This document shows positions 29,979-56,171 of a stretch of 64,000 bases of DNA, one piece after another. The position numbers were made by a program, and so were the translations under genes. Within the stretch, counting starts at the first letter, position 1; each line of letters begins with the position of its first letter. The stretch is from Candidatus Pacearchaeota archaeon (GTDB taxonomy: Archaea > Nanobdellota > Nanobdellia > UBA10117 > JAFCGA01): positions 79,023 through 143,022 of the forward strand of contig JAFCGA010000002.1 of the NCBI GenBank assembly GCA_017608345.1, written 5' to 3'. Under the pieces are notes generated by a model. It had not been told where the DNA came from, searched no databases, and saw nothing but the letters and a program-made list of their open reading frames with translations.

Positions 29979-30018
29979 ACACGTCGGAAAACCACGATGT
30001 TGGTTACTTTCCTCGTGT
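29979..30018 (+). ncRNA. 40-nt conserved hairpin ACACGTCGGAAAACCACGATGTTGGTTACTTTCCTCGTGT in the L3 leader
   Basis: Nested stems ACACG/CGTGT, GGAAA/TTTCC and ACCA/TGGT. A near-identical copy sits at 56132-56171. Confidence 0.55.
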
Positions 30019-30055
30019 ATTTATCGCTATTGAAGCGATAAGGAACGCGATAAAC

Positions 30056-31045
30056 ATGGGACACAATAAACGACAAAGACCAAAGCGAGGCGCGAAGCAA
30101 TTCTGGCCGAGAGTCAGAGCTAAACGTATGTATCCGCGGATTCGCTCTTGGCAGAAGCATTCTCAAACTAAGTTATTGGGATTTGCTGGCTATAAGGCCG
30201 GTATGACACATATTCATTTCGTGGATAACCGTGCTAATTCTCCGACAAAGGGCGAGGAGATACGGATGCCCGTTACGGTTCTCGAAACCCCGTCGATTCA
30301 TATTCTTTCTGTTCGTTTATACCAAAAATCTGGTTATGGTCTTTCTTTAATTTCTGAAGCTTGGGCGGATACTCTAACTCAAGATCTCAAACGAAGGCTA
30401 AAATTACCTAAGAAGCGATCAAATAAACTTCAAGAGCTTGAAAAGCAGTTAGAAAAAGCAGCCGAAGTAAGAGTTTTAATTTATACACAACCGAAGTACA
30501 CTGGTTTTGGAAAGAAAAAACCAGACGTATTTGAGTTAGGGATCGGTGGAAGCGATCCAAAGGCTAAGTTTGATTTCGCAAAATCTATTCTGGGAACGGA
30601 TGTTCCACTGTCTCAAGTTTTCAAGGAAGGAGAAATCTTAGATGTCCACGCAATAACCAAAGGAAAAGGATTCCAAGGAGTAGTAAAGCGGTTTGGAGTA
30701 AAAATTCAGCCAAGAAAGGCAGAAACCAGAAGAAAGATCGGAACCCTTGGTCCATGGACGCCAAAGAACGTACCTTACTGGGTTCCAATGGCCGGTCAGA
30801 TGGGTTTCCACCCGCGGACAGAGTACAATAAGCATCTTCTAAAAATTGCAAACGCTAAAGATCAAGAAGTAACTCCGAATGGCGGATTTGTAAGATACGG
30901 GCAAGTCAAAGGAGATTATATCTTGGTTGCAGGATCCGTTCCTGGTCCGAAGAAGCGATTAATCACACTCACACATGCAACACGAGCGTACAAAACAATT
31001 CCCGCTCCAGAGAATGTAGAAATTAGTCGGAGGAGTCAGCAATGA
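30056..31045 (+). CDS. rpl3: 50S ribosomal protein L3 (uL3)
   Basis: N-terminus MGHNKRQRPKRG..FWPRVRA plus cluster position. Confidence 0.95.
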   Translation: MGHNKRQRPKRGAKQFWPRVRAKRMYPRIRSWQKHSQTKLLGFAGYKAGMTHIHFVDNRANSPTKGEEIRMPVTVLETPSIHILSVRLYQKSGYGLSLISEAWADTLTQDLKRRLKLPKKRSNKLQELEKQLEKAAEVRVLIYTQPKYTGFGKKKPDVFELGIGGSDPKAKFDFAKSILGTDVPLSQVFKEGEILDVHAITKGKGFQGVVKRFGVKIQPRKAETRRKIGTLGPWTPKNVPYWVPMAGQMGFHPRTEYNKHLLKIANAKDQEVTPNGGFVRYGQVKGDYILVAGSVPGPKKRLITLTHATRAYKTIPAPENVEISRRSQQ

Positions 31046-31791
31046 AAGCTGATATATATTCGCTAGCTAATACAAAAACAGCAAGCATAGATCTACCTCC
31101 GCAATTCCTAGAGCCAGTCAGAAAAGATCTGATTAAGCGAGCAGTGCTAGCAATTCAATCTCATAATCGACAGCCATATGGTGCTGATCCAAAAGCAGGA
31201 ACAAGGCAAGGTAAGGCAACTTCAAAGCGAAGAAATAGTTTTGGTACAGTTTATGGTCGCGGAGTTTCAAGAGTTAGAAGAAAGGCGATGTGGCATCGTG
31301 GTTCTCAGTTTGGCTGGGTAGCAGCTTTCATCGCAAACGCAACAAAAGGTAGAAAAGCATTCCCCCCAAAAGTAGAGAAAGTAATCAAAGAAAAAATTAA
31401 CAAAAAAGAACGAAGGAAGGCTATTCGATCAGCAATTGCAGCAGCAGACTCAAAAATAGTAGAAGATAAGTTAGAATCAATTGATAAAACTAAGAACTTT
31501 TTAAGCTCACTTAATCGACTTGGCTATGAGAAAGATCTTGGAGAAAGGAAAATCCGAGCCGGAAAAGGAACGCGGCGCGGAAGGAAATATCGAACTAGCA
31601 AAGGTCCGCTAATTGTAGTTTCTCAGGAATGCAAAGCAATGACTGCTGGAAGAAATATTCTCGGAGTAGACCTAGTCGAAGTTAAGAATCTGAATGCTGA
31701 ACTATTAGCTCCCGGAACAAACCCTGGAAGAAAAACAATTTGGACAAAGTCAGCAATTGAAAAATTAAGCAAGGAGAGTTTATTCATATAA
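31042..31791 (+). CDS. rpl4: 50S ribosomal protein L4 (uL4)
   Basis: Position after L3 with ATGA overlap; ..HNRQPYG..AGTRQG.. Confidence 0.9.
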   Translation: MKADIYSLANTKTASIDLPPQFLEPVRKDLIKRAVLAIQSHNRQPYGADPKAGTRQGKATSKRRNSFGTVYGRGVSRVRRKAMWHRGSQFGWVAAFIANATKGRKAFPPKVEKVIKEKINKKERRKAIRSAIAAADSKIVEDKLESIDKTKNFLSSLNRLGYEKDLGERKIRAGKGTRRGRKYRTSKGPLIVVSQECKAMTAGRNILGVDLVEVKNLNAELLAPGTNPGRKTIWTKSAIEKLSKESLFI

Positions 31792-31792
31792 A

Positions 31793-32053
31793 ATGGATCC
31801 ATATAAAATACTTCAATATCCACTAAGCACAGAAAAAGCAGTTAGGGAGATGGAATCAAGCAATTCTCTGCTTTTCGTAGTGTTCAGAAACGCGAAAAAG
31901 CAAGAGATTAAAAAGGCTACCGAAGAAGCTTTTGGTGTCAAAGTACTTAAAGTCAGAACATTGGTAGATCGAGAAAACAAGAAGCGAGCTTATATTCAGC
32001 TCTCGCCAGACACACCAGCTATTGATGTGACGACTAAATTAGGATTAATCTAA
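31793..32053 (+). CDS. rpl23: 50S ribosomal protein L23 (uL23)
   Basis: Size, position, and ..PLSTEKAVREME.. Confidence 0.9.
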   Translation: MDPYKILQYPLSTEKAVREMESSNSLLFVVFRNAKKQEIKKATEEAFGVKVLKVRTLVDRENKKRAYIQLSPDTPAIDVTTKLGLI

Positions 32054-32769
32054 TGGGAAAGAGAATTATATCACAACGTAGAGGAAGAGGATCACCTACT
32101 TACAAGTCTCCGAAGCATAGATTTGTTGGTGCAGTGGGCTTTACAGACTTCGCAACAGAAAAAATCGATGGCGAGGTAATCGAGTTGGTTAACTGCCCAG
32201 GACATTCAGCACCTTTAATGATCGTAGAATACGCGAACGGAAACGCTAGCTTACTTCCTGCACCAATCGGAATCCGGAAAGGCCAGTTTGTTCAGGCAGG
32301 TATGGGCTCAGGAGTTGCAGCTGGTAATGTGCTTTCGTTATCTGAGATTCCCACCGGTACAAAAATATCAAACATCGAAAGAGTACCTTTTGATAAAGGT
32401 CAGCTAGCAAGAACAGGTGGCTCGTCGGCATTAGTAGTTGGAAAGGAAGGAAAAAAAGTGCTAGTTAAAATGCCTTCAAAAAAGATTGTGAAATTTGATT
32501 CAAAATGCAGAGCTATGATTGGAAAAATAGCTGGCGGAGGAAGGCGCGAAAAACCATTCCTGAGAGCAGGAAGTAAATATCATGCTATGCGAGCTAAGAA
32601 TAAGCTATATCCGCGCGTTAGCGGAAATGCAATGAATGCGGTAGATCATCCGCATGGTTGTACTCACACACGTAATACTAAAAGATCAACGACTGTTTCA
32701 AGAAACACGCCACCTGGAGCAAAAGTTGGTTTAATCGCAGCTAGGAGAACTGGGAGGAAGAAGAAGTAA
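32053..32769 (+). CDS. rpl2: 50S ribosomal protein L2 (uL2)
   Basis: MGKRIISQRRGRGSPTY...NAVDHPHG. Confidence 0.95.
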   Translation: MGKRIISQRRGRGSPTYKSPKHRFVGAVGFTDFATEKIDGEVIELVNCPGHSAPLMIVEYANGNASLLPAPIGIRKGQFVQAGMGSGVAAGNVLSLSEIPTGTKISNIERVPFDKGQLARTGGSSALVVGKEGKKVLVKMPSKKIVKFDSKCRAMIGKIAGGGRREKPFLRAGSKYHAMRAKNKLYPRVSGNAMNAVDHPHGCTHTRNTKRSTTVSRNTPPGAKVGLIAARRTGRKKK

Positions 32770-32774
32770 TTACT

Positions 32775-33164
32775 ATGGCTAAAGAATTTTTCTACAGAGG
32801 CAGGAAAGCAGAAGAAATTGCTAGCATGAACCATAAAGAGTTCGCTCCACTGCTAAAAGCTCGTGCTCGGAGAAAGATCACTCGTGGACTAACTGATGTC
32901 GAAAAGAAACTACTTCTGCGAGTAAAAAAATTCAAAGACACTAAAAAGAAGATTAAGACGCAGTCAAGAGCAATGATTGTTCTTCCAGAGATGATCGGAG
33001 CAACAATTCACATCTACAACGGTAAGGATTATTTACCCGTTATTATCACTGTAGAAATGCTAGGTCATAGACTTGGCGAATTTGCATTAACTAGAAGGGA
33101 GGTTAAGCATAAAGCACCGGGTATCGGAGCTACTCGATCCAGTAAAGCGGTATCTGTTAAGTAA
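32775..33164 (+). CDS. rps19: 30S ribosomal protein S19 (uS19)
   Basis: ..IHIYNGKDYLPV...GHRLGEFALTR.. Confidence 0.95.
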   Translation: MAKEFFYRGRKAEEIASMNHKEFAPLLKARARRKITRGLTDVEKKLLLRVKKFKDTKKKIKTQSRAMIVLPEMIGATIHIYNGKDYLPVIITVEMLGHRLGEFALTRREVKHKAPGIGATRSSKAVSVK

Positions 33165-33796
33165 TGGCGTTTAAGGGAAGTTTCCAAGCATATGATAGCA
33201 AAACAATGGCAAAAGTAGTTGGGACTCACCTTCCGATTTCCTCAAAAAACTCACGCGAAATAGCTAGAGTGATTGCAGGCATGAATCTAGATGCTGCGAT
33301 TAAATACCTCGAGGATGTAATGGACAAGAAGCGTGCAGTTCCATACAAGCGATATAATCGAGATACTCCGCATCGAAAAGGAAATGGTTTCGGAGCAGGC
33401 AGATTTCCAAATAAGTCAAGCATGTTCATCATTAATTTACTAAAATCCTTAAAGGCAAACGCTTCAGATAAATCGCTTGATTCAGATAATCTGCAAATCG
33501 TTCACGTTGCAGCACAGCGAGGATCAGTTTTATGGCACTATGGGCGATTGAGAGGTCGGAGAAGAAAATGTACTCACTTCGAAGCCATTGCTAAAGCAAT
33601 AGATAAACCAAAAAAAGACGTAAAGACGATGGATAAGAAAGCAATTCCGAAAGAGATAAAGGAAAAGGTTAGTCCGGAAGTTAAAGTGGAAAAACCAGCA
33701 CAGAAAAAAGAAGAAATTAAGGTTGCGGCACCGAAAGTTGAGAATAAACCAGCGCTAAAGAAAAAAGAAAACGCTACAGTGGAGAATAAAAAATGA
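33164..33796 (+). CDS. rpl22: 50S ribosomal protein L22 (uL22) with a K/E-rich C-terminal tail
   Basis: Core matches archaeal L22 (..SSKNSREIARVIAGM..); about 65 extra low-complexity residues. Confidence 0.9.
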   Translation: MAFKGSFQAYDSKTMAKVVGTHLPISSKNSREIARVIAGMNLDAAIKYLEDVMDKKRAVPYKRYNRDTPHRKGNGFGAGRFPNKSSMFIINLLKSLKANASDKSLDSDNLQIVHVAAQRGSVLWHYGRLRGRRRKCTHFEAIAKAIDKPKKDVKTMDKKAIPKEIKEKVSPEVKVEKPAQKKEEIKVAAPKVENKPALKKKENATVENKK

Positions 33797-34623
33797 TTGA
33801 GCGAGAATTTATCAAAAACAAAGTCCGGGATCTTAATATACAGAAGGAAATCGGATTCATCGTCAAGAAGAATGCAAGTATAGGTAGTATTATTGTTGAA
33901 AAAACACCATTGAGCGAGACTATAACTATTGATGCAGTTAGACCCGGAATAATAATCGGTAGACGCGGAGAAGTAATAAAGAGGATAACTTCGGAGATTA
34001 AGCGTAAATATAAGTTAGATAATCCTCAGATTAAAGTTCGAGAAATCGCACAGCCATTCTTAAACGCACGAGCAGTAGCAGAGAGAATTGCATCGACTCT
34101 GGAACGATTCGGGTCAGCTAGATTCAAGTCAACAGGACACAGATCTGTTTCCTCGATCTTGTCTGCAGGTGCGTTGGGTGCAGAAATCATACTTTCAGGT
34201 AAATTGCCAGGTAAGCGAGCAAGATCTTGGCGATTTTATGATGGGTACATGAAGAAATGCGGTGAGATTTCAGATGTTTATGTTGATAAGGCAATAGAAT
34301 ATGCTACCCTCCCTTCAGGAGTTATCGGGATAAAGGTTAGCATAATGCGAGAAGATGTTCCGCTTCCAGATAAAATTACTATTTTCGAGCCGAAAGAAAG
34401 CGTAGAAGAAATACCTAAAATCGCTATCAAGGCTGCTGAAAAAACCGAAACTAAGCTAGCGGCCGCTGAACAAATAAAAAAATCAGAAGCGGCGACAGTA
34501 AATGCGGAACCCGCTAAAAAAGCAGTAGTTGTCAAGAAAACTGTAGCTAAGAAAGAAAGTAGTTCGAAATTAAAAGTAATTATCAGTAAAGCAACTACGG
34601 AAAAGGAAACCAAAAAGAAGTAA
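33793..34623 (+). CDS. rps3: 30S ribosomal protein S3 (uS3) with a K/A-rich C-terminal tail
   Basis: KH domain ..GIIIGRRGEVIKRI..; position. Confidence 0.95.
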   Translation: MIEREFIKNKVRDLNIQKEIGFIVKKNASIGSIIVEKTPLSETITIDAVRPGIIIGRRGEVIKRITSEIKRKYKLDNPQIKVREIAQPFLNARAVAERIASTLERFGSARFKSTGHRSVSSILSAGALGAEIILSGKLPGKRARSWRFYDGYMKKCGEISDVYVDKAIEYATLPSGVIGIKVSIMREDVPLPDKITIFEPKESVEEIPKIAIKAAEKTETKLAAAEQIKKSEAATVNAEPAKKAVVVKKTVAKKESSSKLKVIISKATTEKETKKK

Positions 34624-34832
34624 TGGCAATACTTAGATATAAAGAAATAGTTAAAATGGGAGAAAAAGAGCTAGATAATAAGTCAACTGAGCTCAAGAAA
34701 GAGCTAATGAAAGTTCGATCTCAAGTAGCTACTGGAACTCCACCAGAGAACCCCGGTAGAATACGGGAAATTCGAAGAACCATGGCTAGAATTAATACTC
34801 TAAGAACAATTAGGGAGGTACAAAACAAATAA
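34623..34832 (+). CDS. rpl29: 50S ribosomal protein L29 (uL29)
   Basis: Size, position, and ..ELKKELMKVRSQ.. Confidence 0.9.
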   Translation: MAILRYKEIVKMGEKELDNKSTELKKELMKVRSQVATGTPPENPGRIREIRRTMARINTLRTIREVQNK

Positions 34833-35141
34833 ATGAGTGATATATGTCCTGTTTGCGGTTTACCAAAGGACCTCTGCATGTGCTCTGCGGTTGCTAAGGA
34901 AAAACAGAAAGTCCTAATAAAGCTTGACAAGCGTCGATACGGTAAGCTTTTGACGCTTATCGAAGGGATCGATAAAAAACAAGTTAACATCAAGGATCTT
35001 GCAAAGCAACTCAAGGGAAAACTTGCATGTGGCGGAACAGTTAAGGATAGCACGATTGAGCTTCAAGGAAGTCATAAAAACGCTGTGAAGAGAATCTTGC
35101 TGACGCTTGGTTTCACCGAAGATTCAATTGAAATAAGGTAA
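34833..35141 (+). CDS. Translation factor SUI1/aIF-1
   Basis: N-terminal CPVCGLPKDLCMC knuckle plus SUI1 fold ..KLACGGTVKD..IELQG.. Confidence 0.9.
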   Translation: MSDICPVCGLPKDLCMCSAVAKEKQKVLIKLDKRRYGKLLTLIEGIDKKQVNIKDLAKQLKGKLACGGTVKDSTIELQGSHKNAVKRILLTLGFTEDSIEIR

Positions 35142-35158
35142 GCTGCGAGGAGAAAAAT

Positions 35159-35422
35159 ATGATAACACCACAAACTATAATTCGACACGAGCTAATCGGA
35201 TTGCGGGCTGAAGTCAAGCAAGCAAAAAACAAAGCCGCGATCGGAATTCGAGGCGTGATCACCGATGAAACTCAGAATACGCTTGAGGTCGAAGGTAAGA
35301 AAGTGTTCAAGGCAGGCTCTGAATTCCAAGTAGAGCTGCCAAATAAAGTGAAAGTATTGGTCGCTGGAGATAACCTCAAAATGCGACCTTGGGAACGGAT
35401 TAAAAAACGGAGAAATGGTTGA
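35159..35422 (+). CDS. rnp1: RNase P protein component 1 (Rpp29/Pop4)
   Basis: HELIGLRAEV..IGIRGVITDETQNTLEV; canonical position before S17. Confidence 0.85.
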   Translation: MITPQTIIRHELIGLRAEVKQAKNKAAIGIRGVITDETQNTLEVEGKKVFKAGSEFQVELPNKVKVLVAGDNLKMRPWERIKKRRNG

Positions 35423-35879
35423 AGCAAAGAAAACAAAATCAAAAGTCGAGAAGAAAACAGCTAGCCCTGCTAAGCCAAAGGTACAAAAGAAACCTGCTGA
35501 AGCGAAACCAAACGCAGTAGCTAAGAAAGCTACGGTGCCGAAAGTGGCTAAAAAATCAGCAAAAGTAGTAATTCCAAAAGCTCCTGAGACGGAAGGAGTA
35601 TGCGAAGATAGGCACTGCGCAGTTCACAAGCATATGAGCGTACGCGGTAGAGTGTTCATTGGAACTGTAATTAAAGATAAAATGAATAAATCAATTGTTG
35701 TTGAGTGGCCACGAAGGGTCTTAATTAGAAAATATGAGCGGTATGCGAAAAAGCGCTCTCGAGTTTCAGCTCACAATCCTAAATGTATTACTGCTAAGGT
35801 CGGCGACCGAGTAAAAATCGCTGAATGTAGACCAATTTCAAAGACTAAGAAATTTGTAGTTGTGGAGGTGCTGAAATGA
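35415..35879 (+). CDS. rps17: 30S ribosomal protein S17 (uS17) with a roughly 55-aa K/A/P-rich N-terminal extension
   Basis: Core ..VRGRVFIGTVIKDKMNKSIVVEW... Confidence 0.9.
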   Translation: MVEAKKTKSKVEKKTASPAKPKVQKKPAEAKPNAVAKKATVPKVAKKSAKVVIPKAPETEGVCEDRHCAVHKHMSVRGRVFIGTVIKDKMNKSIVVEWPRRVLIRKYERYAKKRSRVSAHNPKCITAKVGDRVKIAECRPISKTKKFVVVEVLK

Positions 35880-36232
35880 GCCCGTTCAAATATGATCCTG
35901 TTGAAGTAGCAAGATTAGACGCAGAACGCTGGAAAGCGATAGATGATAAGAATATAGAAAATATTATAGCGGTTGCTACTAAGTTTTACACGGCTCGTTA
36001 TGGTATTTCTGAGAAATCTGCATCAGAACTAACTAATATTCGAACTGAAGCAGCAATGTGCAGAAGAAATGAAAATTATGATGGCGCAGCAGAGCATCTG
36101 ATTCGATTTTATACTCAATTACAAGAGATAATGAGAAAATCAGGAGAAGAAAATGCTACAGGCGTACGAGCTACAGAGTTAGTTGGTAGGATGAATCAAG
36201 CTGAGAAACATTACAGAGATCTTGAAAGATGA
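35876..36232 (+). CDS. Hypothetical 118-aa non-basic protein inserted between S17 and L14
   Basis: ATGA overlaps at both ends. Predicted all-helical, with no ribosomal protein signature. Confidence 0.6.
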   Translation: MSPFKYDPVEVARLDAERWKAIDDKNIENIIAVATKFYTARYGISEKSASELTNIRTEAAMCRRNENYDGAAEHLIRFYTQLQEIMRKSGEENATGVRATELVGRMNQAEKHYRDLER

Positions 36233-36633
36233 AAGCAATAAAATCAAAAGTATCCAAAGGGCTCCCAATAGGAGCTTACGTGAATGTTGTAGATAATTCT
36301 GGAGCTAGAATTATGCAAGTAGTTAGCGTAAGAGGATACAAGACAAGAACAAGAAAGCTAGCTGAGGCAGGTGTTGGAGATAGAATTACTGCAGCTGTAA
36401 CTTCAGGGAAGCCAGATATTAAGCACAAAGTTGTGCACGCAGTAATTGTTCGGCAGAGAAAGCCGTACCATCGCCCAGACGGCACGCGAGTAAAGTTCGA
36501 AGATAATGCAGGAATCATACTCAAAGATATCAAATTAGGTATGCCCAAAGGAACAGTAATAAAGGGTCCAATAGCAAAGGAGGTAGCAGTCCGCTGGGCT
36601 AATGTAGCTAAGATTGCTAGTATGGTATTATGA
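36229..36633 (+). CDS. rpl14: 50S ribosomal protein L14 (uL14)
   Basis: ..VVDNSGARIMQVVSV... Confidence 0.95.
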   Translation: MKAIKSKVSKGLPIGAYVNVVDNSGARIMQVVSVRGYKTRTRKLAEAGVGDRITAAVTSGKPDIKHKVVHAVIVRQRKPYHRPDGTRVKFEDNAGIILKDIKLGMPKGTVIKGPIAKEVAVRWANVAKIASMVL

Positions 36634-38056: not shown

Positions 38057-38089
38057 AGCGAATTAATTTAAGCGAGGAGATAATTCGCT
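38057..38089 (+). promoter_or_regulatory. Hairpin AGCGAATTA...TAATTCGCT directly after the S4e stop
   Basis: 9-bp stem. One of the few non-coding gaps inside the cluster; the stem sequence recurs at 41529-41550. Confidence 0.4.
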
Positions 38090-38134
38090 ACCTCTCAATT
38101 GTTCTTTTAGAGCGTAAATCCCCGCGTAATTAAG

Positions 38135-46668: not shown

Positions 46669-47337
46669 ATGGCTAAAACTGTGATCAAGCTCGGTGGATC
46701 GTTAATTGTACCGGATCGGATCGATACTAACTTTTTAGTGGGATTTAAGACGGTTGTAGCGGATTATATTCATGCAGATAATCAAGTCGGTCTTGTAATT
46801 GGTGGCGGCGCAACGGCACGTAATTATCAGATAGCGGCGGAGCAATTTAATTCTTATGAACACAGCTTAGACGAAATAGGCATACAGGCTACGCGTTTAA
46901 ATGCCTTGCTTGTAAAATCTGCGTTTGGAGAGCTAGCTTATCCTCAGATTTATGTTGATTACTCTCAGCAAATCTCTGATTTCAAGCTCTTGATCGCAGC
47001 AGGGGATGAACCGGGTCACTCTACAGATTATGGTATGGTACGCCTTGCTCGAAATATCGGAGCTACAAAAGCGATAGTTATGACAAATGTTGATTGTATT
47101 TATTCTTCTGATCCTCGCAAGGATTCTGCTGCTAGTCCAATATTCAATATGCGTTGGGCACAATATCGAGATATGGTGGGAAGCTGGCAGCCAGGAATGC
47201 ATGTTCCAATTGATCCCGTTGCAGCTCAGGTCGCAGAGTCGATTGAGCTAGAAATAATTGTAGCTGGCTCGGACCTCGGAAATCTGGAGAATATCTTGCA
47301 GGGAAAAGTATTCCGCGGCACGACTATCCGACCGTAA
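46669..47337 (+). CDS. pyrH: UMP kinase (amino-acid-kinase fold)
   Basis: VIKLGGS..., VIGGGATARNY. Confidence 0.7.
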   Translation: MAKTVIKLGGSLIVPDRIDTNFLVGFKTVVADYIHADNQVGLVIGGGATARNYQIAAEQFNSYEHSLDEIGIQATRLNALLVKSAFGELAYPQIYVDYSQQISDFKLLIAAGDEPGHSTDYGMVRLARNIGATKAIVMTNVDCIYSSDPRKDSAASPIFNMRWAQYRDMVGSWQPGMHVPIDPVAAQVAESIELEIIVAGSDLGNLENILQGKVFRGTTIRP

Positions 47338-47376: not shown

Positions 47377-47440
47377 ACACGTCGGAAACTCGCTTTTCAG
47401 AAAAGCGAGGCCAAAACCGATAGCCCAAATTTCCTTGTGT
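47377..47440 (+). ncRNA. 64-nt variant of the ACACGTCGGAAA...TTTCCTTGTGT hairpin element, in the L34e leader
   Basis: It has the same outer stems as 29979-30018. The inner part is replaced by CTCGCTTTT CAG AAAAGCGAG plus GCCAAAACC. Confidence 0.45.
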
Positions 47441-47474: not shown

Positions 47475-47825
47475 ATGGCATTAAAAACAATCAAAAAGCG
47501 TACGCCCGGTGGAAAAACCGTCATTCATCGAAAGAAGAAAATGACTTCTAAGCATAAGTGCGCTATCTGTCATGATCTCTTGCATGGAACGCCAAGAGGG
47601 CCAAGAGTTGAAATTAGACGATTATCTAAGACTCAGCGGCGTCCGAGCAGGCCGTTCGGAGGTCAATTATGTTCAAAATGCTCACGAAAGATCATTAGTT
47701 TTAAAGCAAGAGTTAATAGCAAGCTAATCGAGCCAAGTGCGGTTCCAATTAGCTTAAGGAAGTATGTAAATAACGCGAATAAATTCGCGAATTTTATTCG
47801 CAAAACGAAAGAAGAAGGCAAATAA
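47475..47825 (+). CDS. rpl34e: 50S ribosomal protein L34e
   Basis: MALKTIKKRTPGGKTVIHRKKK...CAIC...CSKC. I moved the start to the second Met. Confidence 0.9.
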   Translation: MALKTIKKRTPGGKTVIHRKKKMTSKHKCAICHDLLHGTPRGPRVEIRRLSKTQRRPSRPFGGQLCSKCSRKIISFKARVNSKLIEPSAVPISLRKYVNNANKFANFIRKTKEEGK

Positions 47826-48204: not shown

Positions 48205-48243
48205 CCCTAAAAACTTAAATACCAGCAGCAGTTTTATTCTTGC

Positions 48244-51200
48244 ATGAGTACTCACATTAGCCAGCTACAAGTAAAACGATTCAAATCTTTTAATAAACCC
48301 GTAAGACTCACTTTTAATCCAGGATTATCAGTAATTGTTGGACCAAATGGTTCTGGGAAATCTAACTTGCTTGACGCACTCTGTTTTTCTTTAGGCAGAT
48401 TATCAACAAAGAGCATCCGAGCAGATAATTATTCTGATCTGTTACACCGAAATAAGAAGAATGAGATTCTTGGAGAAGGTTACGTAGCGTTCTCTCTAGA
48501 TAATTCATCGAAAATATTCCCGGTAAACACGCCGAAATTAGATATAATCCGGGAGATTAACAAATCCGGGCAGATTGTATATCGAATAAATAGAAAGCGA
48601 GCAACTAGACAGCAAGTCTTAGAGATTCTCTCAATGTCAAAAGTGACGCCGGAGGGGCATAATATAATCTTGCAGGGAGATGTATCTCGCTTTATTACTA
48701 TGTCTCCGATGGAGAAGCGAAAGATAATTGAGGAGATTGCTGGAATTGGTGCATATGAATCTAAAAAAGACGCAGCGCTTAAGCACCTCGAAAAAGTCGA
48801 CAAACGGCTAAACGATGCTCAAATAGTTCTTACTGAGAAGCGCACGTATTTAGAGGGACTAGAAGCTGAGAAAAAGCAGGCGGAAAGATTCAAGTCTTAT
48901 CAGACAGAACAGCTTAGTTCAAAAGCTACTGAACTACGAATGAAGCTAGCTTCAGTTAATCAGCGCAAGGATACGCTAGAAACTAAATTTAGACGGATAC
49001 AAGATGCTGATAAGAAAGCAGAGAAGATTCTTAAGATATCTGAAAAAAAGATCGAGACAATTAGATCGAGGATGTCTATAATTGAGAAGCAAATCGAAAA
49101 GAAAGGCGGAGAAGATCAGCTAGCACTGCAGAAGACAGTAGAGAATCTAAGAATAACTCTTGAGAATAGTAAAAACTTAGTTCAGAGCTCTAATAATGAG
49201 ATACGGAGAATTGAGAATCGAAAAGCTCAGCTTCAGGATAGTCTGAAAGATATTGAGATAAAGATTGCAGAAAAGACTAGAGAGAAGCAGAAATTAGCTA
49301 GCGAAGTAGCTGAGATTAAATCGAGAGAATCTGAGCTGAAGAAAGTATCTCTTGGGGCTGTTAAAAACATTCGGGATTTTGAAATTAAAGCAGAAAAGGC
49401 AGAAATCGCAGTTCTGGAATTAAATAGTCAGAGGGAGGCAGTAAAAGGGTTGCTCCAAAAGACCGAGAGCGATTTGCAAATTGTAGAGTATCGGCTTAAT
49501 GAATTTGGAAATAAGTTCGCAGAGGCTAAGGAAGTACAATCTAAGATTTTTAAAATAAGCAAGGATAAAGAGCAATATAAGAAATTAATACAGCAAGTCA
49601 ATGAGTTTTCTACTAAAAGTTCAGAAATCGGAGCAGAGATCGATGAATTATATAATCAGCAAGTTAATCTAAAGGAAGAGCTAGCTAGAATTCGGATAGC
49701 TGCGACAGCTACTCAAGATATTTTGCAGAGAGACCGAGCAATTAGTACAATTATCAAGTCTAATACTGTAGGAGTTTCCGGAACTGTAGCAGAACTAGGA
49801 AAGGTTGATTCTAAGTATTCAAAAGCACTTCAGGTAGCTGCTGGAGGTAGAATGAAGAATATCGTAGTCAGAGATCCGAATGTTGCTATTCGATGTTTAA
49901 GTTTACTGAAAGAAAGCAGGGCAGGAACAGCAACCTTCTTACCACTTTCTAATCTGAATGTGTCTCCAGTGTCTCAATTTGTGCGAAGTGCAGTTAGTGC
50001 TAAGGGAGTTATAGGTCTAGCAAAGAATTTGGTTTCCTGCGATGCGCGGTTTAGGAAAATATTTGATTATGTTTTTAGAAATACGCTAATTATCGAGGAC
50101 ACAAATACTGCTAAGCGACTTGGTATCAGTAAATTCAGTATGGTTACTCTGGACGGAGATGTTTTTAGCACATCTGGAGCAATTACTGGCGGATATAGGC
50201 GGAGTTTTGGTTTAAGTTTCGGTGAAAAAGCAGCACATAGAAAGCTAGATAATAAGATTGACGAACTTTCTAAGTTGAAGAAAGAAATAGCTGCTAGAGA
50301 AAAAGAGCGTGCGGAGATTGAGAAAAATTTAATGCAGTTCAGTAGAGCAAAAGCAGAGCTCGAGGGAACGATTGCTGCTACAAAAGATCTTTCTGTAGAT
50401 GTTGGTGCACTAACAAAGGAGCAGCGAACGCTATTGCAACAGAAGCGGGATCTAGATTCTCAAAAAAAGAAACTTGAGAAAGAGTTGACGTCGCTAGAAG
50501 ATAAAATAACTAAAACAAAAATAGAAAAGAATGCACTGAAATCCAAAGTTCAGTCCATAAAGTTTGGAAAGCAAAAGCAAGAATTGAGTACATTAGAATC
50601 TAAGCGAAGTTTGCTAGAGAGCCAGAACGCCGCAGTTAAAGCTACTCTTGAAAATGCCTTGCTGCCCGAACAGAGGAATATTCTGAAAGTTCTGATGAGT
50701 TTGGAAAAAGAAAAGAGAGAATTTAATGTACAGATAAAATCTGAGGAAACCAATGCGACCCGGCTTCAGCGAGACCTAGCCAAACAAGAAAAAGCTGAAA
50801 AAGACTTTTTTGGAGCGCTAAAGGAGTTGTTTAGCAAGAAGAATCAGTTCTTCGAAATTGTCAAGCAAGAGGAAGATGTTCTTGCCAGATTAAGACAAAG
50901 TCAGATTGAAGAAAATGAAGAGCGCAACAGTATTTCTATTGCCACAGCTCGTCTGGAAGCAGAACATGCTGCGCTAAAAGAAGAATTAGAGCCAGTTAAG
51001 AAAGCAAATGTCTTGCCTTATTTAAAGACTATAACTGCTGCTAGAGCTAAGCAAGAGGAATTGAGTCGAAAGATTGAAGAAATGGGCAATGTAAACATGC
51101 GAGCGCTGGAAGTCTATAATGAAATTAAGGTTGAATTCGATAAGCTGACTTCTAGAGTTTCTATATTAAGCCGAGAAAAAGAAGACATTCACTCAGTTAT

Positions 51201-51672
51201 CAACAAGATCGAGTACAAGAAGAGATCATCTTTCTTAGAGACGTTTAATGGAATAGCAAAGAATTTCCAAGGGATCTTTGAAAAAGTTTCAGATAAAATG
51301 AATGGCGAAATATTACTTGAGAAACCTCAGACTCCGTTGGAAGGTGGAGTGATAGTTAAGATCACAAACGATAAGGGTCGGCATATGTCTCTAGCGTCTT
51401 TGTCTGGTGGAGAGAAAGTTTTAGTTGCTCTGGCGTTTATATTCTCGATTCAAGAGCATGAGCCAGCACCGTTTTATCTTTTAGACGAAATCGATGCTGC
51501 ATTAGACGGAGTTAATTCAGAAAAGGTTGCGGCATTATTGCAGGAGTATTCCCAAAAAGCACAGGTTATTATAGTTAGCCATAATGATGCAATTATTTCC
51601 GCGGCAGATCAAATTTATGGTGTTTGGAGAGATAAGGAAGGAGAGAGCTATATTAATTCGCTTAAGATATAA
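48244..51672 (+). CDS. smc: Chromosome segregation protein SMC
   Basis: Walker A GPNGSGKSN, a hinge, long coiled coils, signature LSGGEK and Walker B FYLLDEIDAALD. Confidence 0.95.
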   Translation: MSTHISQLQVKRFKSFNKPVRLTFNPGLSVIVGPNGSGKSNLLDALCFSLGRLSTKSIRADNYSDLLHRNKKNEILGEGYVAFSLDNSSKIFPVNTPKLDIIREINKSGQIVYRINRKRATRQQVLEILSMSKVTPEGHNIILQGDVSRFITMSPMEKRKIIEEIAGIGAYESKKDAALKHLEKVDKRLNDAQIVLTEKRTYLEGLEAEKKQAERFKSYQTEQLSSKATELRMKLASVNQRKDTLETKFRRIQDADKKAEKILKISEKKIETIRSRMSIIEKQIEKKGGEDQLALQKTVENLRITLENSKNLVQSSNNEIRRIENRKAQLQDSLKDIEIKIAEKTREKQKLASEVAEIKSRESELKKVSLGAVKNIRDFEIKAEKAEIAVLELNSQREAVKGLLQKTESDLQIVEYRLNEFGNKFAEAKEVQSKIFKISKDKEQYKKLIQQVNEFSTKSSEIGAEIDELYNQQVNLKEELARIRIAATATQDILQRDRAISTIIKSNTVGVSGTVAELGKVDSKYSKALQVAAGGRMKNIVVRDPNVAIRCLSLLKESRAGTATFLPLSNLNVSPVSQFVRSAVSAKGVIGLAKNLVSCDARFRKIFDYVFRNTLIIEDTNTAKRLGISKFSMVTLDGDVFSTSGAITGGYRRSFGLSFGEKAAHRKLDNKIDELSKLKKEIAAREKERAEIEKNLMQFSRAKAELEGTIAATKDLSVDVGALTKEQRTLLQQKRDLDSQKKKLEKELTSLEDKITKTKIEKNALKSKVQSIKFGKQKQELSTLESKRSLLESQNAAVKATLENALLPEQRNILKVLMSLEKEKREFNVQIKSEETNATRLQRDLAKQEKAEKDFFGALKELFSKKNQFFEIVKQEEDVLARLRQSQIEENEERNSISIATARLEAEHAALKEELEPVKKANVLPYLKTITAARAKQEELSRKIEEMGNVNMRALEVYNEIKVEFDKLTSRVSILSREKEDIHSVINKIEYKKRSSFLETFNGIAKNFQGIFEKVSDKMNGEILLEKPQTPLEGGVIVKITNDKGRHMSLASLSGGEKVLVALAFIFSIQEHEPAPFYLLDEIDAALDGVNSEKVAALLQEYSQKAQVIIVSHNDAIISAADQIYGVWRDKEGESYINSLKI

Positions 51673-52577
51673 TGAAAGTTATTGTTAGTAGATACGCAGA
51701 ACATGTTGGATTAAAACTTGCAAGTGCACCGTATAATTTAGAAATCTTGCTTACAGGTAGGAATAAAGAGAAAAAAAGAGATTTTCCAGATGGAGACCCG
51801 TTTATTCAATTATTACCTCAAAATGTAGACTTAAGAGATAATTCAGCAATAGATAAGGCATTAACACAGCAATTAGAAGATGAAGATATAAAGATTTTGA
51901 CCTCTGGGCAGCCAAGAGGTATGTTTTGCATATATGAATCCGAAGCGCTAGTCGATCTTGCTGAAAGATATAATGCTCGGAGCGTTGAAATATTCTTTAT
52001 GTATTTTCCAATGAGTATGGCAGATGCTGAATTCAAACCCGGTATAAGCAATCTTGCGAGAAAGAATTGCGAGAGATTTAAAGATTATCAAATGTATACT
52101 ATCGCTCCGCATTTTGGTAATAAATCATGGGTTTCAGAGTATCGTTTAGAAGCGATATCTGCTGAGCAATTAATTATTAACGAGATAAATAAGCACTTTG
52201 ATTATTCGCAGTATGTTCCTGTTGCTTGTGATGTTGGAGAAGAAGAACGAACGGGAATTCCGGGCTTTTATAAAAAACGCATAGATTCTAATAATGTAAT
52301 AGTTGAAGCAAGCCCTGAGCTCATCAAGAGAATGAGCGGTAATCGTGTCGCGTTAAGGGATGATATAATTGAAACGGGCAATACTGCTTATACTTGTGGT
52401 AAAGTTGCTAAAGAATATGCTTCTGAAGTGATATTTATAGCAACACATGCAGTTATGTCTGAGGGAGTTAGTTTAGTGAGGTCTATTTTTGATGAGGTTT
52501 ACTTTACAAATACAATTGCTAGACGAGATGCGAATGTGGATATAACTCCCGTAGTGTATGAAGTGTTTACAAGATGA
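51672..52577 (+). CDS. Divergent ribose-phosphate pyrophosphokinase-like (PRTase fold) protein
   Basis: FPDGDPFIQL and LRDDIIETGNTAYTCG..FIATHAV. The start overlaps the smc stop (TAATG). Confidence 0.55.
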   Translation: MKVIVSRYAEHVGLKLASAPYNLEILLTGRNKEKKRDFPDGDPFIQLLPQNVDLRDNSAIDKALTQQLEDEDIKILTSGQPRGMFCIYESEALVDLAERYNARSVEIFFMYFPMSMADAEFKPGISNLARKNCERFKDYQMYTIAPHFGNKSWVSEYRLEAISAEQLIINEINKHFDYSQYVPVACDVGEEERTGIPGFYKKRIDSNNVIVEASPELIKRMSGNRVALRDDIIETGNTAYTCGKVAKEYASEVIFIATHAVMSEGVSLVRSIFDEVYFTNTIARRDANVDITPVVYEVFTR

Positions 52578-52669
52578 TAATATGAAAATACAACGGCTCA
52601 AATGAAACAAGAATTATATTTAACGCATCTGGAGTCAGGGCTAAATGCCTTTCTCTTTTGGATGCCTAG

Positions 52670-52693
52670 TTTTCTCTTTCGCGAAAGAGAAAA
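52670..52693 (+). promoter_or_regulatory. Perfect 24-nt palindrome TTTTCTCTTTCGCGAAAGAGAAAA abutting the scpA ATG
   Basis: 12-bp stem. It has the same arm sequence type as the tRNA/rRNA insertion hairpins. Confidence 0.5.
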
Positions 52694-53458
52694 ATGGCGA
52701 TGACAAAACAACTATACGAAGCAATCTTTGATGAGAACAATATCAAATGGCGGTCTCTAATTTATGAGATGGTTAGATCTGGGAAGATAGACCCGTGGGA
52801 TATTGATCTGACGCACTTTACTAAAGAGTATATGAATATGATCCATAAACTAAAAGAGCTGAACTTTAGAGTTTCTGGAAAAGTTGTGCTTGCTGCAGCT
52901 ATTCTTCTTAAGTTAAAGACTAACGGTCTCCGACTAAACGAATTTTTGTCTATGACTGAAGAAGAGCCAGACTATGCAATTGATGTCGAAGAAGATGAGG
53001 AACAATTTATGGACGAAGATGAGCAAAAGCTGGTGAAGCTAGCTAAACATATTGAACATAACAAAAAGAAAGAGTACAAGCTCGAGCCGAACATTTACGG
53101 AGAGCGAACTCGGAAGGTTACTGTTTTTGAATTAGTTGGCGCGCTTAAGAAAGCTCTTGAGGTTGACGAGCGAAGAAAAACTCGAGAAATTGAGCAGGTC
53201 GAAGCGCCAAAACTTATGCAATACAAAGTCAAGATGGTCGATATTGTTGAGAAGATGATTGAAGTTTTTGAAAGGTTAAGTAATCACCTATTAAAGCACC
53301 GCAGGAACAGGGTCCATTTTAGTAAAATAGTTCCTAGTGAAGAAAAGAAGGATCGGATTTGGACCTTTGTTCCGCTTTTACATTTAGCTAATGATGGTAA
53401 AGTCTTCTTACATCAAGATAAACCTTTTGGAGATTTGTTTGTGGAGGTGAAGACGTGA
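52694..53458 (+). CDS. scpA: Segregation and condensation protein A (kleisin)
   Basis: ..KIDPWDIDL...; position after smc and overlap with scpB. Confidence 0.8.
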   Translation: MAMTKQLYEAIFDENNIKWRSLIYEMVRSGKIDPWDIDLTHFTKEYMNMIHKLKELNFRVSGKVVLAAAILLKLKTNGLRLNEFLSMTEEEPDYAIDVEEDEEQFMDEDEQKLVKLAKHIEHNKKKEYKLEPNIYGERTRKVTVFELVGALKKALEVDERRKTREIEQVEAPKLMQYKVKMVDIVEKMIEVFERLSNHLLKHRRNRVHFSKIVPSEEKKDRIWTFVPLLHLANDGKVFLHQDKPFGDLFVEVKT

Positions 53459-53937
53459 GAGAACTAAAATCCAAACTCGAAGCAATCCTTTTCTGCTCTC
53501 CGCAGGGAGTGGAGCTAGCCAAGCTAGCCAAGCTCTGCGGGATTGGAGCAAAGGGGCACGTTAAGGCAGTTCTTAATTCAATTAAAGAAGATCTAGAAAA
53601 ACGCGAAGCTGGAATTAAGCTAATTCGAAACGAAAACGTTTGGAGATTTAGAGTTAGGGATGAGCACGTCGGATTAGTTACAGAATCTGCAAAGCCAGAA
53701 ATTGACAAGGCGATTCTGCAAACTTTAGCATTTATAGCTCATAAGGGATCTGCTCGTCAGTCAGATGTGGTTAAGCTTAGAAGCAATAAGGCATATGATC
53801 ATATTAAACAACTAGTTGACCTCGGTTTTGTCGAAGCTAAGAAAAAAGGAACTACTAAGCTGATTGCTCCGACGAAGAAGTTTTATAAATACTTTAATCT
53901 TAATGAGAATGAAGTTCTCGAAGTTGAAGGAGCATAA
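53455..53937 (+). CDS. scpB: Segregation and condensation protein B
   Basis: LEAILFCSPQGV..; tandem winged-helix pattern. Confidence 0.8.
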   Translation: MRELKSKLEAILFCSPQGVELAKLAKLCGIGAKGHVKAVLNSIKEDLEKREAGIKLIRNENVWRFRVRDEHVGLVTESAKPEIDKAILQTLAFIAHKGSARQSDVVKLRSNKAYDHIKQLVDLGFVEAKKKGTTKLIAPTKKFYKYFNLNENEVLEVEGA

Positions 53938-53973
53938 CCAAAGAAATAAATACTGTAAATCTATTAGTCTTTT

Positions 53974-56091
53974 ATGACAAACTTGCAACGCAGTCATATT
54001 CTTACTTTTGTTCTAATTAGCGTAATTGCTATAATTTCTTTTTCTCTTATTTATCATATTGCTAATCCTCCGATTGTAGTTTATCCAAGAGTAACTGGCA
54101 TGTCAACCGGACAAAGATTTCGAGTAATGGCTGCCGGAACCTTTACAGATACGTCTACAGCGGACTTTGATGCCGGGAATAAGACGGATAATAGTGATGG
54201 GAATTATCAGATTGAGACAAATACGGATAATCCAACTAAGGCAGTAGATAGTTTGTCTTTGTGCGATCGTTATGGATATAATTTTAACAAGCCACACGTT
54301 GATTCGGATATTTGGAAGTTCAACTATCGAACGGTAACTGGAGCACCGACCACAGATGACATTGATACTACTGCTAATGATGAATTATACTTTCTTGGTG
54401 GTGGAGGAGATCAAACTGCGTTTTGGTTCGGAACAACCGATGGCACGGATTATTTGTTTGGTGGAGACTTTTCGATTACAACCAAATTCAAACATCAGGT
54501 CGGTGCAGCAGCGGGAGATAGTATAATTGTTGGAGTATACGCTAATAGTGCAAGCAATCCAGGGTCAAACTACGTTAATCACCCGAAGCGAAGATTGGCT
54601 GAACCGGAACGATTTAGACCGCAATATTCAATAAACGGTGTTGTGACAGGTCATGCAATATCTAATAGTGTTGATACTGATTTTACAATGCGTATAAATC
54701 GCGTTGGTGTATCTACGACCGCAGACATCGATTTAGCTGGTGGTGAAACTTGGACTGCGTTAGGTGGAGCATTTAACTGGCAGGGCGCTGATGTCAACGT
54801 TAGATTTAATTTAAGAAAGGGTCTTGCTGGCGATCATTTTCGATCTGTAGAATATTATAAAATAACTTGTGATTCAGTAGACTCGTCGATTGATATGTAT
54901 CGAACAACCGGAAACTTCACCTCCCAAACCCACAACATCTCCCAAGCAATCTCAATCTCCGAGCTAAGATTCAACTCAACAATCCCAAAAGCTACAGACA
55001 ATATCTCAAAAATAGAACTCTACGGCAGCGATACCAATGACACAAGCGCTGCCGCACTAGTAGACGCCTTCGTAAACGGTACCGATTTCACCATAACGTC
55101 GGGAGAATCCCAAACACTCCATACTATAACAGATTCCAACATAGCCAACGACGCATATCAATTCTGGTGGTACAAATTCACACTCGCAGGAGCAGGAAAC
55201 AGCAGCCCAATTATCTACGACGTAGCGATGGACTATGACACCAACGACGCAACAGCACCAGCAATAATATTACTAAGCCCAACGAACAACTCAATCTTAA
55301 CCACTTCAATCCTAAACATCACCGGCACAGCCAGCGACACAAAGCCAGACTCAATCACAACAAATTCCCCATACTTCGCAACAAACTCCGGAAATTTCAC
55401 CAACTGGAACTTCACAAACACATCGCTAGCAGACGGAACCTACACAATAATAATCTCAGCTAATGACTCTTTCGGAAATACCAACTCAACAAGCATAACT
55501 TTCACAATAAACACCTCCGCACCAACAATCACTCTCTCAGAACCAGTAGACCTAACAATCGGCACATCTTCAACAGCAGTATTCACTTACACCCCAAACT
55601 CCGCAGGAACAATCAGCGATTGCTCCCTAATAATCGATAATAATATCGAGCAAACAGACGCATCTATTACCAAAGGAACTGAACAATCTTTCACACAAAC
55701 AGGTCTATTCGACGCTAAGACTTACATCTGGAGCATCAATTGCACTGACGCAACCGGCGCTACAACTGCCTCCAGCTCAAGAACTCTAAGGATTAGCATA
55801 CCTTCTGAAGCAACCACCGTCCGCCGAACTGGAGGAGCCCCAGCAACTACACCAACCGAAGCACCAACCCAAAAGCCAACAACTTCCTTTAGGCAGCCAG
55901 CTCCAACAAGAAGCGAACCAGCAAAGGAACAGCTAGAAGGTCAAGCAGGGGAAGCAGTATTTGGTACCGTCAGCCGCTCTGAAAAATCAAGTCCAAGCTC
56001 AACGCAAATAGCTATTCTTACTGGAATAATAGCAGTATTTACTCTTGTGTGTCTACAAGGAATCAAACCACTTCTATTAAACACCAAATAA
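53974..56091 (+). CDS. Large surface (S-layer/adhesin-like) protein: N-terminal signal anchor, Thr/Pro-rich stalk, C-terminal TM anchor
   Basis: 705 aa with many N-x-S/T sequons, a PTEAPTQKPTT linker and the terminal helix IAILTGIIAVFTLVCL. Confidence 0.7.
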   Translation: MTNLQRSHILTFVLISVIAIISFSLIYHIANPPIVVYPRVTGMSTGQRFRVMAAGTFTDTSTADFDAGNKTDNSDGNYQIETNTDNPTKAVDSLSLCDRYGYNFNKPHVDSDIWKFNYRTVTGAPTTDDIDTTANDELYFLGGGGDQTAFWFGTTDGTDYLFGGDFSITTKFKHQVGAAAGDSIIVGVYANSASNPGSNYVNHPKRRLAEPERFRPQYSINGVVTGHAISNSVDTDFTMRINRVGVSTTADIDLAGGETWTALGGAFNWQGADVNVRFNLRKGLAGDHFRSVEYYKITCDSVDSSIDMYRTTGNFTSQTHNISQAISISELRFNSTIPKATDNISKIELYGSDTNDTSAAALVDAFVNGTDFTITSGESQTLHTITDSNIANDAYQFWWYKFTLAGAGNSSPIIYDVAMDYDTNDATAPAIILLSPTNNSILTTSILNITGTASDTKPDSITTNSPYFATNSGNFTNWNFTNTSLADGTYTIIISANDSFGNTNSTSITFTINTSAPTITLSEPVDLTIGTSSTAVFTYTPNSAGTISDCSLIIDNNIEQTDASITKGTEQSFTQTGLFDAKTYIWSINCTDATGATTASSSRTLRISIPSEATTVRRTGGAPATTPTEAPTQKPTTSFRQPAPTRSEPAKEQLEGQAGEAVFGTVSRSEKSSPSSTQIAILTGIIAVFTLVCLQGIKPLLLNTK

Positions 56092-56131
56092 AACATCTTA
56101 AATATTTTAGCTGCTTTCTATTTATTGTGTT

Positions 56132-56171
56132 ACACGTCAGAAAGCCACGAAATTGGTTACTTTCCTCGTGT
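56132..56171 (+). ncRNA. Second copy of the 40-nt hairpin (ACACGTCAGAAAGCCACGAAATTGGTTACTTTCCTCGTGT)
   Basis: It aligns without gaps to 29979-30018. Differences keep or wobble the pairing (ACCA/TGGT becomes GCCA/TGGT). Confidence 0.55.

Follow-up and report, generated by a model that had tools for sequence, protein, structure and literature searches.

A lineage-specific family of nested hairpins, probably a spreading repeat, at predicted mRNA 5′ ends and other transcribed sites of a DPANN archaeal genome

A nested hairpin, here called HP1, occurs three times in a 64,000-nt stretch of DNA (the window) from the Candidatus Pacearchaeota archaeon assembly GCA_017608345.1, upstream of the genes for ribosomal proteins L3 (rpl3) and L34e (rpl34e) and of a gene of the NFACT/RqcH family, and belongs to a family of 27 copies in this genome. 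We consider HP1 to be probably (about 0.6) a lineage-specific, spreading hairpin repeat, similar in kind to the repetitive extragenic palindromes (REPs) of bacteria and the Rickettsia palindromic elements (RPEs), which would have colonised transcription start regions and be tolerated there, or may have been co-opted as a 5′ leader. It does not look like a dedicated ribosomal-protein control site, and a leader of that kind could be set aside because copies also lie in open reading frames (ORFs), in an intron of a tRNA-Gly gene, inside another copy and beside duplicated gene ends. The source genome is that of a DPANN archaeon, assembled to 1.05 Mb in 15 contigs (38% G+C, 88% complete), which are referred to as C1, C2 and so on below; the window corresponds to C2:79023-143022, and the names borne by homologues of its L3 place the genome among the Woesearchaeota/Nanoarchaeia.

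Three copies in the window share one nested fold

The original prediction had described two 40-nt hairpins, upstream of rpl3 and the NFACT gene, and a 64-nt variant upstream of rpl34e, and the three sequences were found on the + strand at 29979-30018, 56132-56171 and 47377-47440, respectively. For the 12-mer of the 5′ arm, ACACGTCRGAAA, the window contains three occurrences where 0.40 would be expected, a number reached in 0 of 100 shuffles. When the window was searched, with all filters off, using a covariance model of HP1 (R1), exactly three matches were obtained, scoring from 31.6 to 42.7 bits (Table 1), and the best score on the reverse strand was 12.8 bits. RNAfold reproduced the nested fold proposed for both 40-mers, which consists of ACACG/CGUGU, a UC/U internal loop, GGAAA/UUUCC, a UAC bulge, ACCA/UGGU and a 6-nt loop, as well as the outer frame retained in the 64-nt variant, of which the interior differs. 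One detail had to be corrected: the substitutions between copies had been assigned to loops or to A-U to G-U conversions, and the change at A8 of the NFACT copy instead creates an A.C mismatch at pair 8-34. The single-sequence folding z-scores are modest (-1.8 to -2.1), and the support for the structure comes from the recurrence of the hairpin and from covariation over 22 aligned copies. The three hairpins end 37, 34 and 83 nt before the ATG of the genes that follow on the same strand, which Pfam confirmed as those of L3, L34e and NFACT, respectively.

HP1 forms a multicopy family with a covarying frame and sharp boundaries

Copies were first sought by a regular-expression scan and then with R1, which finds 27 in the 1.05-Mb genome; a reversed-pattern control yielded no match, vs 19 with the true pattern. 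Common to all copies is an invariant base, in which ACACG, an unpaired UC and GGAAn on the 5′ side face nUUCC, an unpaired U and CGUGY on the 3′ side, and the tip is variable, being a loop of 3 nt at one extreme and a branched insert of 45 nt at the other. The copies fall into discrete subfamilies that correlate with genomic context: 25 nt (loop AG/AAA), 28 nt (GC-AWA-GC interior), 40 nt, which is the form first described and includes the rpl3 and NFACT copies, and 64-69 nt, with an interior made of a hairpin plus a tail. The interior architecture of the rpl34e copy matches that of the long copies C1:175284 and C3:7091, in the latter of which it is inverted.

Covariation was computed on an alignment of 22 of the 27 copies, over which the frame is 92% paired. 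Pair 12-30 is AU in 10 copies, GC in six and CG in five, pair 11-31 is AU in 20 and GC in two, and the observed covariation score was reached by none of 500 shuffles and by no slid register; G.U pairs on the sense strand occur at pair 5-36. Within the 40-nt subfamily the mean identity is 93%, compared with 57% in both flanks and 52% among random 40-mers, which marks sharp boundaries of the unit. Orientation is strongly biased, with 24 copies in sense and three in antisense.

The family appears confined to this lineage. R1 gave no match in 38 other genomes of the order or in 400 genomes, from 235 genera, of the class, and no HP1 match was obtained in viral contigs. HP1 was not found upstream of rpl3 in three relatives with 68-72%-identical L3, nor in a relative with 60%-identical L3 (G006). 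Exact-pattern scans of genome and metagenome contigs returned, among the matches listed, only single chance matches in unrelated bacteria, none of them with the AC prefix or the CTT suffix. Rfam produced no match at the elements in the window at the gathering threshold, nor at 15 copy-bearing loci at E<=1 or E<=0.1.

Copies also occupy coding regions, a tRNA intron and a filled site

Five copies are inserted in frame in the disordered, Lys/Glu-rich tails of L7Ae, DnaK, HIT, FtsY and RadA proteins, four of them as intact 42-nt units and the RadA copy in degenerate form. All five use the same reading frame and encode DTSEQVPRASSKAEG-like peptides, a second frame being also open, and this shared, benign and hydrophilic frame suggests that the insert is translated. 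The tail of the L7Ae-family protein (C1:24650-25330), inside which the HP1 unit lies, is an unusual C-terminal stretch of ~110 aa with a high content of Lys, Glu, Pro and Ala.

A further unit resides in the D-loop intron of tRNA-Gly(UCC) (C7:11200-11545, minus strand), a gene interrupted by a D-loop intron of ~150 nt and a T-loop intron of ~115 nt, which ARAGORN recognises as canonical only after in silico removal of both inserts; a related intron in another tRNA gene is without the unit. ARAGORN found only 13 tRNA genes in the whole genome, most tRNA genes of which are probably interrupted in similar ways. At C1:242242 a 40-nt HP1 itself contains a nested short unit, and on C5 a sequence present twice is split in one of its two copies, without target duplication, by a 45-nt unit composed of HP1 and the second stem lying 3′ of it (HP2). 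HP1 thus behaves as a mobile repeat would, being multicopy and having filled and empty sites on C5, in tRNA introns and at the nested copy. Three copies, on C5 and C14, are antisense to the neighbouring genes and have the appearance of intergenic scars. The original prediction held that copies at random locations and in random orientations would reduce the hairpin to a generic miniature repeat; the copies in ORFs, a tRNA intron and scars do point that way as to location, but the orientation (24:3) is non-random and the frame covaries.

Gene ends are duplicated significantly on the two sides of only 5 of the 27 copies, namely the rpl3 5′ end, the L24e 3′ end, two sites on C5 and one on C14. At rpl3, where the flank-duplication score is 42 vs a null 95th percentile of 28, the first 13 codons are present at both 29877-29915 and 30056-30094 and encode MGHNKRQRPKRGA in either place; since all eight differing codons are synonymous, one copy must derive from a diverged but functional allele. 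The same gene end is duplicated around unrelated inserts, two-hairpin or plain and without HP1, in a genome of another family of the order and in a relative with 72%-identical L3 (L272:1404-1503 and L286:1-101), so that gene-end duplication extends beyond HP1 and can be separated from it. Either side of HP1/HP2 at C1:25900-26100, C5:24500-24960 and C14:66480-66720, the duplicated segments come from the L24e gene and two genes of ~520 aa and are 3′ ends in each case, and the C5 duplicate still reads as the same C-terminal peptide.

A second repeat family was also detected, a near-perfect palindromic twin hairpin of the form CCAGAG-hairpin-TTGGCCAAG-hairpin-CTCTGG with ~20 loci in the genome. 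Its sites are tRNA introns, including the T-loop intron of tRNA-Gly, intergenic spacers and three HP1 leaders, that of the NFACT gene among them.

Leader copies lie behind TATA-like boxes and are followed by a second stem

Eighteen of the 27 copies, including all three in the window, are located upstream of a gene on its sense strand. The identity of the downstream genes was graded in two ways. Confirmed by Pfam were L3, L34e, S15, L35Ae, L37ae, aIF5A, NFACT, archease, Spt4, a NusA-type KH protein, a DUF2304 membrane protein and a winged helix-turn-helix (wHTH) regulator; read from sequence only were CDC48, a Cys-rich secreted protein, three small ORFs and tRNA-His. The specificity for translation-related genes that the three window copies had suggested was not borne out, as CDC48, the DUF2304 membrane protein, the Cys-rich secreted protein and the wHTH regulator also stand downstream of the element.

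Across the genome, the starts of TATA-like hexamers cluster sharply 30 nt upstream of the ATG, 316 of them falling in the -30 to -28 bin for 705 ORFs, and this spacing points to predominantly leaderless mRNAs as the norm in this archaeon. Internal operon genes carry GGAGG or GGUGA motifs at -15 to -9, matching CCUCC at the 16S 3′ end. In 14 of the 18 leader copies a TATA-like hexamer is placed 26-44 nt before the first base of HP1, most often at -30, and because of this TATA-to-HP1 spacing HP1 in those 14 is probably located at the RNA 5′ end or within ~10 nt of it. The remaining four have no TATA-like hexamer at -26 to -44, and three of them begin 1-12 nt after the preceding stop codon, which places them between cistrons.

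In 13 canonical leader copies HP1 is followed by HP2, typically CUUAGUUUCC ... GGAAACCAAG, of which the 3′ strand is purine-rich and Shine-Dalgarno-like. All 13 of these second stems stop at the start codon or a few nucleotides from it; in 10 the outer helix runs exactly up to the AUG, and one further copy reads AAG-AUA there. Double compensatory changes were found in 6 of the 10 pairs of this helix, a result matched by 0 of 500 shuffles. The HP2 stems of the three window copies are more divergent than those of the canonical leaders and end 1 nt (rpl3), 3-4 nt (rpl34e) and 3 nt (NFACT) before the ATG. An alternative 'proximal' HP2 helix, which would make the leader a two-state switch, is 70% paired and was equalled by 205 of 500 shuffles, in a part of the alignment (the interior) that is poor. 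The antisense strand of HP2 folds slightly better than the sense strand (sums of -191.7 vs -172.7 kcal/mol), a difference that rests on ~2 ancestral changes. The earlier reading of the hairpin as a structured element on the coding strand, probably in the 5′ leader, is supported, as to structure by covariation and as to the leader by the TATA spacing, although the element is not confined to leaders. Between the HP1/HP2 leader and the gene of aIF5A, at C1:81543-81660, there is a 20-codon ORF starting MAETKQLE; as aIF5A starts MAEIKSEE it may be an orphaned gene start, the similarity being weak.

Spreading repeat, regulon, processed RNA or recombination site

Several observations weigh against a spreading repeat. 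Sequence conservation is much higher in HP1 than in the HP2 next to it, of which only the pairing is kept, and this looks like selection on sequence rather than a selfish insert decaying neutrally. The copies concentrate just downstream of promoters, where an organism with leaderless mRNAs should least tolerate an insertion, and none was found upstream of a TATA box, although insertion there should be harmless. Genes of translation or transcription (L3, L34e, S15, L35Ae, L37ae, aIF5A, NFACT, archease, tRNA-His, Spt4 and the NusA-type KH protein) follow 11 of the 18 leader copies. The 88%-complete genome yielded no Y1 transposase, TnpB or reverse transcriptase, and neither target-site duplications nor a conserved target sequence was found at the HP1 ends. 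The gene content and the 93% conservation of the HP1 sequence would be expected of a regulon in which one RNA-binding protein recognises the HP1 base at the 5′ ends of information-processing mRNAs and controls their stability or translation, much as ribosomal proteins do in autogenous control, the other copies being decayed by-products. Such a regulon would also account for the sense orientation of all 18 leader copies, the fixed position relative to the TATA box, the exact end of HP2 at the AUG in 10 copies, and the combination of a constant base with a variable tip, which is typical of a protein-binding hairpin. We nevertheless hold it to be doubtful, although conceivable, in view of the copies in five ORFs, a tRNA intron, another HP1 and antisense intergenic scars, and of the membrane protein, Cys-rich secreted protein and small ORFs among the downstream genes. 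HP1 is moreover absent upstream of rpl3 in the relatives with 68-72%-identical L3 and from the 400 genomes of the class, a distribution on which an autoregulatory ribosomal-protein leader was also rejected. A mismatch-tolerant string search of the organism's own 16S and 23S rRNA found no helix-loop-helix like that of HP1, and no candidate binding protein was identified. A protein-binding role of the invariant base is plausible by its form, and spread and function are compatible, as a mobile module may be kept where it is helpful or may be aimed at transcription start regions.

The original prediction had compared the hairpin to a relaxed substrate of the splicing endonuclease, and in a wider form this idea would have HP1/HP2 cut by the tRNA-splicing endonuclease or another nuclease, so that the leader is stripped off, leaving a leaderless mRNA that begins at the AUG, or the copies in ORFs and introns are spliced out, possibly with spread at the RNA level. 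This explanation is invited by the covarying HP2, which in 10 copies reaches exactly to the AUG although mRNAs of this organism normally seem to be leaderless, and likewise by the HP1 unit in the D-loop intron of tRNA-Gly, the occurrence of the twin hairpin in both the NFACT leader and a T-loop intron, and the almost wholly sense orientation. The genome encodes EndA (C6:49291-49551), the gene for archease, a cofactor of the RtcB ligase, itself has the leader, and the 40-nt subfamily has a 4-bp helix adjoining the 3-nt bulge. A canonical bulge-helix-bulge is nevertheless lacking: what is conserved is the UC/U internal loop (2x1), with a 5-bp helix next to it, and of the subfamilies only the 40-nt one has the UAC bulge, the 25-nt and 28-nt forms being without it; on these grounds the endonuclease substrate was rejected. 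The 42-nt length of four in-ORF copies and the single hydrophilic frame of all five suggest translation rather than splicing, and no reverse transcriptase was found that could serve RNA-mediated spread; altogether we judge processing of this type to be unlikely. Still less probable, in our estimation, is a DNA-level recombination site or scar, in which the palindrome would fold in single-stranded DNA for a recombinase, in the manner of attC or att sites, or would mark junctions of illegitimate recombination. Five copies are indeed flanked by significant gene-end duplications, the rpl3 5′ copies differ only synonymously, as expected for a diverged functional allele, the general layout, in which an unpaired spacer separates the outer from the inner box and the tip varies, recalls integron attC, the genome encodes two tyrosine recombinases, and the A.C mismatches of HP2 in sense become G.U on the other, slightly better folding strand. 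Twenty-two of the 27 copies are, however, without flanking duplication, and relatives duplicate the rpl3 5′ end around inserts free of HP1. An assignment to integron attC was rejected since there are no core motifs (RYYYAAC or GTTRRRY) at the ends and no cassette arrays, and neither tyrosine recombinase nor any other integrase is adjacent to a copy. As to strand, the HP1 sense strand also has G.U (pair 5-36), and the A.C cells of HP2 trace to only ~2 ancestral events.

If HP1 is a spreading repeat, its distribution could be understood as that of an element sitting in transcribed, insertion-tolerant sequence, which would include mRNA starts, gaps between cistrons, a tRNA intron and the disordered tails of proteins. 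In the leader copies HP1 would form the 5′-terminal stem-loop of the mRNA and would most likely shield the 5′ end, and a leaderless message would thereby become one with a structured leader. The start codon would then no longer be 5′-terminal, initiation would have to proceed from the Shine-Dalgarno-like purine run in HP2, and pairing in the HP2 outer helix would gate this Shine-Dalgarno-dependent initiation. A sequence-specific protein could read the invariant helix-loop-helix base of HP1 and leave the tip free. A more far-reaching proposal, to which we assign a low likelihood, is that HP1, the twin hairpin and the intron modules are all RNA-structured elements that move among tRNA introns, the 5′ ends of leaderless mRNAs and coding regions by a process tied to transcription or RNA processing. 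Movement might then be linked to transcription, with start sites targeted in sense, or might depend on cutting and rejoining of the EndA/RtcB type, and the ending of the leader at the AUG would be either the signature of the target or that of a removable 'leader intron' whose loss restores a leaderless mRNA.

Relation to known repeats and significance

The closest analogues of a spreading HP1 are found among the small palindromic repeats of bacteria. Like the REPs (PMC3733652), HP1 is a short imperfect palindrome of 25-40 nt, multicopy, lineage-specific, divided into discrete subfamilies and plausibly active as RNA, and some REPs also lie within genes; most REPs, however, lie downstream of ORFs and are often paired head to head as dimers, and HP1 occurs as single sense units at predicted transcript starts. 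The CGTC-tagged REPs combine an unpaired CGTC tag, an 8-9 bp stem starting with A/T, a 4-5 nt loop and a CCA tail, lie downstream of ORFs and are frequently arranged as head-to-head dimers (Di Nocera et al. 2013, PMC3733652). HP1 shares with them a CGTC beside the stem and the lack of a linked transposase, but its CGTC, at positions 4-7, is half paired (the CG), the 8-9 bp A/T-starting stem and the CCA tail are missing and the loop differs, HP1 units are single and near predicted transcription starts, and the described CGTC REPs are all bacterial; membership in that class was therefore rejected. With RPEs (PMC10969869) HP1 has in common the in-frame insertion of a palindrome into unrelated housekeeping genes, seen here in five ORFs with translation being predicted, a conserved peptide, a reduced, host-dependent genome and additional non-coding sites. 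The in-ORF unit is, however, 42 nt vs ~100-150 bp for RPEs, which are not concentrated at transcription starts, share no sequence with HP1 and belong to a different domain of life (PMC10969869).

Hairpin modules of several families that are combined in varying order near genes and can alter transcript ends or stability in compact, A+T-rich genomes are likewise represented by the pneumococcal BOX and RUP elements, the Neisseria Correia elements and the yeast mitochondrial G+C-rich hairpin clusters (PMC4478555). Unlike HP1, for which none was found, these have terminal inverted repeats and target duplications or known target motifs, and for none of them is a systematic position between promoter and start codon in a leaderless-mRNA organism reported. 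Assignment of HP1 to the MITEs, or miniature inverted-repeat transposable elements, failed in the same respect, as the 5-bp ACACG/CGTGT ends are the only possible inverted repeats and no direct repeats are present at the junctions. Mobile tRNA introns of Thermoproteales, which Fujishima et al. are said to have described in 2010, are reportedly short structured inserts at many sites with a bulge-helix-bulge at each junction. They resemble HP1 in that related inserts occur in transcribed genes, one HP1 unit and the twin hairpin being in tRNA introns, and differ in that HP1 is without a bulge-helix-bulge and has most of its copies in mRNA leaders. In bacteria, 5′-terminal stem-loops such as that of the ompA leader stabilise mRNAs and are gene-specific rather than a repeated conserved sequence; HP1 is comparable in its predicted position at the very 5′ end of the transcript, and we know of no archaeal family of 5′-terminal stem-loops with a shared sequence. 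A kink-turn bound by L7Ae was also considered and rejected, since the UAC bulge is followed by UUUCC in Watson-Crick pairing with GGAAA and there are no G.A pairs.

REPs, RPEs, BOX elements and MITEs are well known in bacteria, and in archaea such repeats have been described only in a few cultured lineages; a 2024 review contains no DPANN example of small structured repeats (PMC10969869). HP1 is placed predominantly between promoter and start codon of highly expressed genes, where a leaderless-mRNA organism should be least tolerant of it. Whether functional or selfish, its 27 copies are natural test cases for mRNA 5′-end biology in DPANN archaea. If the leaders are functional, they illustrate how a leaderless mRNA can become a leadered and regulated one when it captures a portable hairpin cassette; if HP1 is purely selfish, even symbiont-type archaeal genomes of 1 Mb would carry actively spreading micro-elements without a recognisable transposase. 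Should RNA-linked movement be real, both the mode in which the elements move and this further level of mRNA maturation in archaea would be new.

Features of the three leaders in the window

The promoter-like boxes, hairpins and genes of the three leaders are compiled in Table 1, together with the orphan copy of the rpl3 5′ end and two example loci of the twin hairpin elsewhere in the genome.

Table 1. Features at the rpl3, rpl34e and NFACT leaders (window positions unless a contig is named)
Feature	Position	Strand	Details
Orphan copy of rpl3 5′ end	29877..29942	+	TAA stop 29940-29942; own TATA box 29839-29846; GAGGT Shine-Dalgarno-like motif
TATA-like box TTAAAAAG	29939..29946	+	40 nt 5′ of rpl3 HP1
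HP1 copy, 40-nt subfamily, upstream of rpl3	29979..30018	+	R1 42.7 bits; RNAfold
HP2-type hairpin of rpl3 leader, UUUAUCGC...GCGAUAAG	30019..30055	+	second GCGAUAAA beside AUG; ends 1 nt before ATG at 30056; whole-leader z-score -3.6
rpl3 (ribosomal protein L3), head of ribosomal-protein cluster	30056..31045	+	Pfam PF00297, E 1.7e-81
TATA-like box TTATATAAA	47339..47347	+	38 nt 5′ of rpl34e HP1; shortly after stop (47335-47337) of upstream amino-acid-kinase gene
HP1 copy, long subfamily, upstream of rpl34e	47377..47440	+	R1 31.6 bits; RNAfold; 45-nt interior of hairpin plus tail on same basal frame
Weak HP2-type stem UUUAUU...AAUAAA	47441..47474	+	ends 3-4 nt before L34e ATG at 47475; whole-leader z-score only -0.95
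rpl34e	47475..47825	+	Pfam PF01199, E 1.2e-21
TATA-like box TTAAATAT	56098..56105	+	34 nt 5′ of NFACT HP1
HP1 copy, 40-nt subfamily, upstream of NFACT gene	56132..56171	+	R1 39.0 bits; RNAfold
Twin-hairpin module CCAGAG..CTTGGCCAAG..CTCTGG in NFACT leader	56176..56233	+	RNAfold; second, palindromic repeat family
Short HP2-type hairpin GUUUCACC-CAA-GGUGAAAC	56233..56251	+	holds AGGUGA Shine-Dalgarno-like motif; ends 3 nt before ATG at 56255
NFACT/RqcH-family gene	56255..58222	+	Pfam PF05833 (E 2.2e-62) and PF05670
Twin-hairpin example loci	C2:42280-42340; C4:54150-54210		

Two further loci of the window are probably interrupted. The 16S rRNA gene at 7036-8698 measures 1663 nt vs a model of 1478 positions, and an Rfam tRNA match at 10499-10641 extends over 143 nt; in each case an insert or intron is likely.

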